Shown: positions 56,701 to 59,036 of the stretch, in pieces
Position numbering within the stretch: the stretch's first letter is position 1
How the letters are laid out: each line of letters starts with the position of its first letter
Assembly: GCF_055900595.2 (NCBI RefSeq)
Contig: NZ_CM148325.1
Length of the DNA: 64,000 nt
Direction: 5' to 3' (one strand)
Notes under the pieces: model-generated
Told to the model about the DNA's origin: nothing
Seen by the model: the letters and a program-made list of their open reading frames with translations, nothing else
The model's database searches: none
Made by a program: the position numbers and the translations under genes

Positions 56701-57496
56701 TACCCATCTGGCGCTGCACAAAGAGGACGAGAAGATCCGCTTTCGCGATATTCAGGCGCAGCCACGTAAAATTATCTCCAGCCCCACATGGTCTGGTCTG
56801 GAAAGCGATCACGTCTCCTACAACGCCGGATACACCAACGTTCATGAGTTAATTCCGTGGCGCACGCTGTCGGGACGCCAGCAGGTCTATCAGGATCATC
56901 CGTGGATGCGTGCCTTTGGTGAAAGCCTGGTGGCTTATCGTCCGCCTATCGACACGCGCAGCGTCAGCGAAATGCGCCAGATACCGCCAAACGGCTTCCC
57001 GGAAAAAGCACTTAACTTCCTGACACCGCACCAGAAATGGGGCATTCACTCTACCTACAGTGAAAACCTGCTGATGCTGACGCTCTCTCGCGGCGGGCCA
57101 ATTGTTTGGATCAGCGAAACCGATGCCCGCGAACTGACCATTGTCGATAACGACTGGGTGGAAGTGTTTAACGCCAACGGCGCGCTGACGGCCCGTGCAG
57201 TGGTCAGCCAACGTGTACCGTCGGGCATGACCATGATGTATCACGCCCAGGAACGCATAATGAATATCCCCGGTTCGGAAGTAACCGGCATGCGCGGCGG
57301 CATTCATAACTCGGTCACCCGCGTTTGTCCGAAACCAACGCATATGATTGGCGGTTACGCGCAGCTGGCCTGGGGCTTTAACTACTACGGCACCGTCGGC
57401 TCAAACCGTGACGAATTCATCATGATCCGCAAGATGAAGAACGTTAACTGGCTGGATGATGAAGGTCGCGATCAGGTACAGGAGGCGAAAAAATGA
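53756..57496 (+). CDS. narZ: Respiratory nitrate reductase 2 alpha subunit
   Basis: ORF 53633-57496; start at ATG 53756 (MSKLLDRFRYFKQKGETFADGHGQ…) gives 1246 aa; N-terminal Fe-S Cys/His cluster (HGVNCTGSCSWK). Confidence 0.95.
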   Translation: MSKLLDRFRYFKQKGETFADGHGQVMHSNRDWEDSYRQRWQFDKIVRSTHGVNCTGSCSWKIYVKNGLVTWEIQQTDYPRTRPDLPNHEPRGCPRGASYSWYLYSANRLKYPLIRKRLIELWREALKQHSDPVLAWASIMNDPQKCLSYKQVRGRGGFIRSNWQELNQLIAAANVWTIKTYGPDRVAGFSPIPAMSMVSYAAGTRYLSLLGGTCLSFYDWYCDLPPASPMTWGEQTDVPESADWYNSSYIIAWGSNVPQTRTPDAHFFTEVRYKGTKTIAITPDYSEVAKLCDQWLAPKQGTDSALAMAMGHVILKEFHLDNPSDYFINYCRRYSDMPMLVMLEPRDDGSYVPGRMIRASDLVDGLGESNNPQWKTVAVNTAGELVVPNGSIGFRWGEKGKWNLESIAAGTETELALSLLGQHDTVAGVAFPYFGGIENPHFRSVKNDPILVRQLPVKNLTLADGSTCPVVSVYDLVLANYGLDRGLEDENSAKDYAEIKPYTPAWGEQITGVPRQYIETIAREFADTAHKTHGRSMIILGAGVNHWYHMDMNYRGMINMLIFCGCVGQSGGGWAHYVGQEKLRPQTGWLPLAFALDWNRPPRQMNSTSFFYNHSSQWRYEKVSAQELLSPLADASKYSGHLIDFNVRAERMGWLPSAPQLGRNPLGIKAEADKAGLSPTELTAQALKSGDLRMACEQPDSGSNHPRNLFVWRSNLLGSSGKGHEYMQKYLLGTESGIQGEELGASDGIKPEEVEWQTAAIEGKLDLLVTLDFRMSSTCLFSDIVLPTATWYEKDDMNTSDMHPFIHPLSAAVDPAWESRSDWEIYKGIAKAFSQVCVGHLGKETDVVLQPLLHDSPAELSQPCEVLDWRKGECDLIPGKTAPNIVAVERDYPATYDRFTSLGPLMDKLGNGGKGISWNTQDEIDFLGKLNYTKRDGPAQGRPLIDTAIDASEVILALAPETNGHVAVKAWQALGEITGREHTHLALHKEDEKIRFRDIQAQPRKIISSPTWSGLESDHVSYNAGYTNVHELIPWRTLSGRQQVYQDHPWMRAFGESLVAYRPPIDTRSVSEMRQIPPNGFPEKALNFLTPHQKWGIHSTYSENLLMLTLSRGGPIVWISETDARELTIVDNDWVEVFNANGALTARAVVSQRVPSGMTMMYHAQERIMNIPGSEVTGMRGGIHNSVTRVCPKPTHMIGGYAQLAWGFNYYGTVGSNRDEFIMIRKMKNVNWLDDEGRDQVQEAKK

Positions 57497-59036
57497 AAAT
57501 ACGTTCGCAAGTCGGCATGGTGCTTAACCTCGATAAATGTATCGGCTGCCATACCTGTTCGGTGACCTGTAAAAACGTCTGGACCGGACGCGAAGGCATG
57601 GAGTACGCATGGTTTAACAACGTCGAAACCAAACCGGGTATTGGTTATCCGAAAAACTGGGAAGATCAGGAAGAGTGGCAAGGCGGCTGGGTCCGCGATG
57701 TCAACGGTAAGATCCGCCCGCGTCTGGGCAGCAAGATGGGGGTGATTACCAAAATCTTCGCCAACCCGGTGGTGCCGCAGATTGACGATTACTACGAACC
57801 TTTCACCTTCGACTACGAACATTTGCATAGCGCACCGGAAGGCAAACATATCCCTACTGCTCGCCCGCGTTCACTGATTGACGGCAAACGGATGGACAAA
57901 GTGATCTGGGGGCCAAACTGGGAAGAATTGTTGGGCGGTGAGTTCGAAAAACGCGCTCGTGACCGCAACTTTGACGCCATGCAAAAGGAGATGTACGGGC
58001 AGTTTGAAAACACGTTCATGATGTACCTGCCGCGCCTGTGCGAACACTGCCTTAACCCCAGCTGCGTGGCGACCTGCCCAAGCGGCGCGATCTACAAACG
58101 CGAAGAAGACGGCATTGTGCTCATCGACCAGGATAAATGCCGTGGCTGGCGTTTGTGCATTAGCGGTTGTCCGTACAAGAAAATCTACTTCAACTGGAAA
58201 AGCGGTAAGTCAGAAAAATGCATCTTCTGTTACCCACGAATTGAGTCAGGCCAACCCACCGTGTGCTCAGAAACCTGCGTGGGTCGCATCCGGTATCTGG
58301 GCGTGCTGCTTTACGACGCCGACCGCATCGAGGAAGCGGCGAGCACCGAGCGCGAAGTTGACCTCTATGAACGCCAGTGCGAAGTGTTCCTCGATCCGCA
58401 CGATCCCTCTGTGATCGAAGAAGCCCTGAAACAAGGTATTCCACAAAACGTGATTGAAGCTGCCCAGCGTTCGCCAGTCTACAAAATGGCGATGGACTGG
58501 AAACTGGCGTTACCGCTGCACCCTGAATACCGCACCCTGCCGATGGTCTGGTACGTTCCTCCGCTGTCACCGATTCAGTCTTACGCTGATGCGGGTGGCT
58601 TGCCGAAAAGCGAAGGTGTGCTTCCCGCTATCGAAAGCCTACGTATACCGGTGCAATATCTCGCCAATATGTTGAGTGCGGGCGATACCGGTCCGGTGCT
58701 GCGGCACTAAAACGGATGATGGCGATGCGCCACTATATGCGTTCACAAACCGTGGAAGGCGTTACCGATACCCGCGCCATTGACGAAGTAGGGCTGAGCG
58801 TCGCCCAGGTCGAAGAGATGTATCGCTACCTCGCCATTGCCAACTATGAAGACCGTTTTGTCATTCCAACCAGTCATCGGGAAATGGCGGGCGATGCCTT
58901 CGCAGAACGCAATGGCTGCGGTTTTACCTTTGGCGACGGTTGCCACGGCTCGGACAGCAAATTCAACCTGTTCAACAGTAGCCGTATCGATGCCATCAAC
59001 ATCACCGAAGTGCGCGACAAAGCGGAGGGCGAATAA
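57493..59036 (+). pseudogene. narY: Nitrate reductase 2 beta subunit, split by a 1-nt frameshift
   Basis: ORF 57493-58710 (405 aa, four Fe-S Cys clusters) ends …GDTGPVLRH*; the C-terminal part continues in another frame as 58716-59036 (MMAMRHYMRSQ…). CTGCGGCACTAA versus the expected CTGCGGGCACTAAAACGG implies one G missing from a G-run at about 58703. Confidence 0.7.

Follow-up and report, generated by a model that had tools for sequence, protein, structure and literature searches.

A probable single-base frameshift mutation in narY, encoding the beta subunit of nitrate reductase Z, in a strain assigned to Escherichia cryptic clade I

Introduction

The stretch of 64,000 nucleotides analysed here, referred to as the window, carries a narY gene, encoding the beta subunit of nitrate reductase Z (NRZ), whose reading frame is interrupted by a stop codon and resumes in another frame. 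This raises the question whether the strain has lost NRZ or whether the interruption arose by a sequencing or assembly error, two alternatives which the original prediction had placed side by side. NRZ is described as constitutively expressed (PMC7005491) and as more important to cells under stress than for anaerobic respiration, its role being still unclear (PMC8139620).

Results

The narY span comprises positions 57493-59036 of the window, which is 1544 nt instead of 1545 nt and thus one base less than 515 codons. At the site of the lesion, CTGCGGCACTAA stands in the window in place of the CTGCGGGCACTAA common to all relatives; likewise, CTGCGGCACTAAAACGG is found in the window and CTGCGGGCACTAAAACGG in the relatives, which corresponds to a change from GGG to GG at positions 58703-58704. 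The loss of a single G from a G-run, as it had been predicted, was confirmed by this comparison. The GGG run extends over the codons of Arg404 and Ala405 (CGG GCA), and the deletion site (58702-58705, plus strand) is CGGC here and CGGGC in all relatives. The GCA codon of Ala405 is thrown out of frame, and the frame now continues with CGG CAC TAA, so that translation would be expected to halt after 405 residues.

The 5' fragment of narY (57493-58710, plus strand) is a 405-codon open reading frame comprising wild-type residues 1-404, a histidine and the stop codon TAA at 58708-58710; its product ends with GDTGPVLRH and contains all four cysteine groups of the Fe-S centres. The 3' remnant (58704-59036, plus strand) lies in the other frame and codes for wild-type residues 405-514. 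In this second frame, the reading homologous to NarY starts with the GCA at 58704-58706 (ALKRMMAM...), which indicates that the two pieces abut and that just one base is gone. The first ATG of this frame is located at 58716, followed by further ATGs at 58719 and 58725; the resulting open reading frame (58716-59036) encodes 106 amino acids (MMAMRHYMRSQ..., MMAMRHYMRSQTVEG...), while the Logan gene caller places its start at 58725, giving 103 amino acids. The stop codon of the remnant (TAA, 59034-59036) overlaps the ATG of narW. The description of a reading frame terminating with GPVLRH and resuming in another frame was thus correct; the distance to the next ATG had been given as 6 nt and amounts to 5 nt (58711-58715). 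Both fragments are collinear on the NCBIfam profile TIGR01660 (narH): the first covers its positions 1-402 with 826.9 bits, the second its positions 408-491 with 126.8 bits.

The curated whole-protein cut-off of this profile is 524 bits, a score which is exceeded by the 5' fragment and by the restored sequence of a relative (981.2 bits). The profile match and the gene order narU-narZ-narY-narW-narV together supported the identification of the gene as narY. In the window this order continues with yddE and nhoA, as is typical for the NRZ locus, and the same order was found in the annotated relatives. The neighbourhood of yddE and nhoA assigns the genes to NRZ rather than to the NRA locus, where narK-narGHJI is found beside narXL. 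The PGAP labels for the beta and gamma subunits of NRZ are generic, namely 'narH' and 'narI'.

The genes surrounding narY on the plus strand are undamaged. The nitrate/nitrite transporter gene narU (52273-53661) is intact and shows two synonymous differences to the ST485 relatives. The alpha subunit gene narZ (53756-57496), the stop codon of which overlaps the narY start, is also intact (1246 aa), as are narW, encoding the chaperone (59036-59731), and narV, encoding the gamma subunit (59728-60408). As anticipated in the original prediction, the genes flanking narY have retained their reading frames: narZ and narW each carry one synonymous change, and narV is identical in the four ST485-clade relatives compared. 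The narW gene possesses its own Shine-Dalgarno sequence GGAGGG at 59024-59029. Beyond the operon, all 47 other genes of the window are equal in length to their counterparts in strain E400634, and the only other internal stop among the window genes is the selenocysteine TGA of fdnG.

Eight complete genomes share 99.9-100% identity with the window, while all other E. coli genomes reach at most ~98%. Five of these eight (100117, E200086, E400634, E500002 and E600003) are cryptic clade I isolates of the GEMS study with sequence type ST485 and serotype OND:H45, whose genomes were assembled from Illumina and ONT reads (PMC13064198). Sequence identity thereby places the source strain in Escherichia cryptic clade I, related to ST485. 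All eight complete clade I relatives carry GGG at the site, and a beta-subunit coding sequence of 514 amino acids was present wherever the annotation was read. Exact-protein look-ups with two variant proteins of the window brought up many GenBank assemblies that are still closer. The six of them which cover the site all carry GGG and a 514-aa NarY gene call. Within positions 53228-64000 (10.8 kb), only the narY G and 1-2 SNPs separate the closer assemblies from the window, and within positions 5848-28220 there are 3-7 SNPs without any indel. The two other single-base indels seen in comparison with the ST485 genomes (A6 at 21283 and an extra T at 63086) are common to these closer relatives, which identifies them as real polymorphisms. 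The initial impression of a slightly sloppy assembly, with three private indels and ~26 private SNPs relative to the ST485 genomes, was abandoned, as nearly all of these differences are present in the closer GenBank relatives.

An 81-nt probe centred on the narY site matched none of the 5,354 complete genomes of E. coli perfectly; the best matches were 81/82 over a span of 82 nt, meaning that the extra base is present. A degenerate pattern covering alleles of the deleted form (GTR CTG CGG CRC TRA) had no match in 100,044 GTDB representative genomes, and the same pattern had no match in JGI metagenome contigs. The exact 405-aa NarY product occurs in one other record of an index of 153 billion genes, the Logan contig SRR27886137_48. 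Members of the protein cluster were considered as candidates for the same allele and rejected, since they are partial proteins at contig ends. A look-up of the 103-aa C-terminal fragment returned 212 blocks; ten places were inspected, none of which contained the narY deletion, and this approach was uninformative with respect to recurrence. The places inspected were unrelated cases, namely error-ridden assemblies with many broken genes (UGEM01000004, AP022360), scaffold gaps filled with Ns, rearrangements, frameshifts of another origin and an insertion of Mu. A literature search for narY pseudogenes and for SRR27886137 yielded nothing relevant. As judged from these genome comparisons, the deletion is private to the strain, neither shared nor recurrent.

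The cysteine groups of NarH bind three [4Fe-4S] clusters and one [3Fe-4S] cluster, and a tryptophan replaces the second cysteine of group III. In the 405-aa fragment, the corresponding residues are cysteines 16/19/22/26, 183/186/191/195, 216/222/226 (together with W219) and 243/246/258/262, so that, counting W219, all sixteen positions of Fe-S ligands are kept. There is no uninterrupted frame of ~512-514 codons that would take in the conserved C-terminal region, as the stop follows codon 405. Residues 405-514, i.e. 110 conserved C-terminal residues, are missing from the truncated protein. The break is located within the Pfam domain PF14711 (Nitr_red_bet_C, nitrate reductase beta C-terminal; residues 358-436), the second half of which is lost, and in a RALKRM segment which is invariant across the aligned NarY and NarH sequences. 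Identity to NarH of E. coli (PDB code 1Q16, chain B) is 75.5% for residues 405-506 and 80% for residues 1-404, which suggests a similar constraint on the lost and the retained regions. An AlphaFold2 model of NarY calculated from a five-sequence alignment had a mean pLDDT of 35, too poor to judge the contacts of the C-terminus. By its sequence, the locus is to be classed not as an intact member of the NarH/NarY family but as a truncated allele or a pseudogene.

Sensitive blastn searches revealed a second narH-like place in all eight clade I relatives. In E400634, narG, narH, narJ and narI are annotated as intact, and narK-narGHJI is located beside narXL, ~215 kb from the NRZ locus. A megablast search had returned just one narH-like place, which suggested that narGHJI might be missing from the clade I relatives; this interpretation was rejected on the basis of the sensitive blastn search and the E400634 annotation. 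The only exact stretch of at least 31 nt common to the NRZ region of the window and narGHJI of E400634 is located at 59800-59840 (41 nt, narV/narI). At 59829, where the Logan contig ends, a single base is lacking to complete the first shared 31-mer, as expected for a k=31 graph which breaks at this point if the strain itself carries narI. The source strain thus very probably retains narGHJI, encoding NarGHI, and a mild phenotype would be expected for this reason.

Discussion

Whether the missing G reflects an error or a mutation can be judged from an assembly that was made independently of the window. Logan contig SRR27886137_48 (13.7 kb) is 100% identical to positions 47493-59829 of the window (12,337 nt) including the narY deletion, and the match also covers the strain-distinguishing SNPs 56518A and 59717G. 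This identity, private SNPs included, points to one and the same strain or clone, for which raw reads were put together in a separate assembly, and since the contig has the same GG, an artefact of the assembler or of polishing appears to be ruled out; an assembly error as the source of the frameshift can be regarded as effectively excluded. An error at the level of the reads requires separate consideration. The strain might truly carry GGG, with a systematic under-call of the G-run having entered both the window and the Logan assembly. The loss of one base from a homopolymer is a classic type of error, the deletion is known from a single sample, narY is otherwise perfectly conserved with intact neighbours, and one read set may even underlie both the window and the Logan contig, as their identity over 12.3 kb would allow, so that the two would share the error. 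Against this explanation, the run is only three bases long, and the narY deletion is the sole indel private to the window within the 33,146 nt comparable with the closer relatives, a region containing 1,751 homopolymer runs of at least 3 bases, 151 of them of at least 5 bases, all of which match the nearest relatives in length. Moreover, a de Bruijn contig of 13.7 kb built with k=31 passes unbroken through the site and matches the window perfectly, which indicates accurate and consistent reads, and no further gene of the window is frameshifted. We therefore consider a read-level artefact unlikely. Of the two alternatives raised at the outset, the evidence, above all the Logan assembly and the lack of any other private indel, favours a real loss, and we assign a probability of roughly 80% to a very recent, strain-private -1 frameshift mutation in narY.

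A broken gene might nevertheless be compatible with a working enzyme, either because both fragments are translated, with a new start at ATG 58716 after termination at the TAA, and assemble as a split beta subunit, or because NarH substitutes for NarY. Three ATGs (58716, 58719 and 58725) follow shortly after the stop codon at 58708-58710, the two fragments together lack just residues 405-408, the first fragment holds all Fe-S ligands, and narZ, narW and narV are intact. As to a substitution by NarH, narGHJI is intact in E400634 and a copy of narI is suggested for the source strain by the end of the Logan contig. Active hybrids of NRA and NRZ subunits have reportedly been obtained, and NarH could accordingly provide a partial rescue of NarZ; a literature search for the interchangeability of NarH and NarY yielded nothing relevant. 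Translation as a split protein is made less likely by the lack of a Shine-Dalgarno sequence ahead of the ATG at 58716 and by the position of the cut within the conserved domain PF14711 and its invariant RALKRM segment, and the arrangement is found in no relative, which argues against a selected architecture. Taken together, a working enzyme in spite of the broken gene appears quite improbable, and even less credit can be given to the more specific proposal of a natural split NarY whose two parts, the Fe-S fragment of 405 aa and the C-terminal one of 106 aa, join NarZ and NarV to form an active nitrate reductase. Were this the case, the beta subunit would tolerate a break of its backbone within the C-terminal domain. 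The frameshift might also be bypassed by programmed recoding, with ribosomal frameshifting allowing read-through, or be part of a phase-variable switch in which the tract length toggles. Such readings could draw on the position of the change in a homopolymer, beside a rare CGG codon that is followed by the stop. They conflict with its absence from 14 close relatives and the 5,354 genomes, as it is neither conserved nor recurrent. Restoring the frame would demand a shift of -1 (or +2), for which CUG-CGG-CAC-UAA offers no slippery re-pairing; a programmed frameshift site is effectively refuted by the missing conservation and has no slippery motif here. A phase-variable contingency locus was likewise rejected, as the tract is just 2-3 G long without recurrent length variation, the intact form being GGG only, and as the GG form was absent from the other genomes, the GTDB representatives and the metagenome contigs searched. 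We regard both mechanisms as hardly conceivable.

The favoured reading is thus a real frameshift mutation. It would have arisen by the loss of one G from the GGG run, most simply by replication slippage. As decay is seen nowhere else in the operon and no sister genome carries the lesion, the event belongs on the outermost branch of the tree; the break seems too recent for further degradation of the operon to have followed, and conceivably the deletion arose only in the culture that was sequenced. With the beta subunit truncated, the complex of alpha, beta and gamma subunits would probably not be assembled, and the truncation together with the conservation of the lost part suggests that NRZ probably has little or no activity left. 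That the strain has lost nitrate reductase Z is a reasonable deduction from the sequence; NarH of the paralogous narGHJI operon might partly substitute. Expression of narW and narV may be somewhat lowered, with ~326 nt upstream of narW now left untranslated unless re-initiation takes place at 58716; the strong ribosome-binding site of narW itself speaks against such polarity.

For annotation, the locus should be labelled as a frameshifted narY pseudogene private to the isolate, and its significance beyond this is small. A real mutation would mean that the clade I strain probably does without the RpoS-linked nitrate reductase of stressed and stationary-phase cells while keeping NarGHI, which could slightly alter its stress tolerance or its fitness where nitrate is available, and it would represent a natural narY-null strain for studies of NRZ. 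In addition, the case illustrates for genome scans how a homopolymer frameshift can be examined when the original reads are not at hand, namely through a Logan assembly made independently for the strain in question.

In comparison with known systems, the locus corresponds to E. coli NarY of the narZYWV-encoded NRZ, with which it shares the synteny narU-narZ-narY-narW-narV-yddE-nhoA; the restored protein has 514 amino acids and scores 981 bits against TIGR01660. It also resembles NarH (PDB code 1Q16, chain B), to which restored NarY is ~79% identical in residues 1-506; both proteins have the four cysteine groups, with the tryptophan in the second position of group III. In contrast to intact E. 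coli NarY, a 1-nt deletion breaks the open reading frame of the source strain at codon 405, leaving a 405-aa product and an out-of-frame 3' remnant. Functionally, the second membrane-bound nitrate reductase would be expected to be lost, with NarGHI and Nap remaining, as in the E. coli CFT073 mutant with a deletion of narZYWV (PMC7005491) and in Salmonella stiA/narZ mutants, as these are cited in PMC8139620. Those mutants were engineered and affect the whole operon or narZ, whereas in the source strain the beta subunit alone is truncated, and residual or hybrid activity is possible. A further parallel is provided by ordinary frameshift pseudogenes of E. coli, labelled 'frameshifted' by PGAP, which are likewise caused by a single-base indel in a short homopolymer of one isolate and leave the neighbouring genes undamaged. 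Private lesions in the same region of sister genomes are a 14-bp deletion in adhP of E400634 and a frameshift in ydeM of Z0117EC0005, at a site with an extra A in an A run. The narY lesion shows no material difference from such pseudogenes and has, in addition, the support of a read assembly against an assembly error. It is a case of ordinary pseudogenisation, a truncated allele of a well-characterised gene formed by the commonest kind of spontaneous frameshift, and as such of an already known kind.

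Sequence variation in the window and its relatives

In the window we identified a 704 bp IS200 element (41394–42097, transposase on the minus strand) which is inserted between yddM (higA) and fdnI and whose transposase matched the NF033573 model with 144 bits. At this site the element was not found in any of the four near-identical clade I genomes of the ST485 group compared. Roughly 18–20 places in these four relatives showed similarity to part of a 25-kb query containing the element, and presumably these places represent copies of IS200.

The sister genomes carry private frameshifts of their own in the region covered by the window. 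In E400634, adhP has lost 14 bp (L003, its matching locus, 8795–9791), corresponding to window 40502–40515, and in Z0117EC0005 ydeM is annotated as frameshifted (L020, 18737–19898), where a run of A residues at the position corresponding to window 13596 is longer by one A. At both sites the window is intact. A polymorphism affecting a single C was identified among the ST485 relatives at window position 50495, within the first leucine-rich-repeat gene (49383–50636). In E500002 and Z0117EC0005, which share an extra C at this site, the annotation gives a ‘hypothetical protein’ of 1260 nt as opposed to the 1254-nt gene for a leucine-rich-repeat protein; a compensating change near this site is likely.

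The poly-C tract at codons 324–325 of dosC (27297–27298) varies among near-identical genomes by A-to-C substitutions rather than in length. Most relatives carry the form GGAACCCCCC, the relative designated L025 carries GGACCCCCCC, and the window shares GGCCCCCCCC with L026, resulting in the exchange Thr325Pro in the diguanylate cyclase DosC. Stepwise growth of a poly-C tract across near-identical genomes is an odd pattern.

A type VI secretion effector island is located at the 3′ end of the window (63227–64000) and extends beyond it, as seen in the closer relative L027 (1–10585). It comprises genes for VgrG, a DcrB-like protein, PAAR-Rhs, a Tox-REase-7 toxin and a SUKH-4 immunity protein, the last of which differs between window and ST485 relatives by R61K.

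Nitrate reductase paralogues and plasmid-borne copies

Within narV, 41 nt (59800–59840) are identical to narI of narGHJI, and the two loci share no other exact match of at least 31 nt. The end of the Logan contig, assembled from public reads with k=31, falls exactly at this stretch, a useful indirect sign of the paralogue in the sequenced strain.

A narU-narZYWV-yddE-nhoA′ segment was found on large plasmids of E. coli from chicken and human sources, such as pPK8568-122kb (NZ_CP080128.1, L033, 2610–12570); further cases are the matches H44, H45, H48 and H55 to the 81-nt narY probe, and the plasmid places total 85 by sensitive blastn. In pPK8568-122kb, the one plasmid inspected, the segment lies between ISKpn26 (IS5-like) and a truncated TnAs1 transposase gene, adjoins tet(A) and carries a clade-I-like narY allele at the probe site. 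A chromosomal respiratory operon, narZYWV, is here mobilised onto resistance plasmids.
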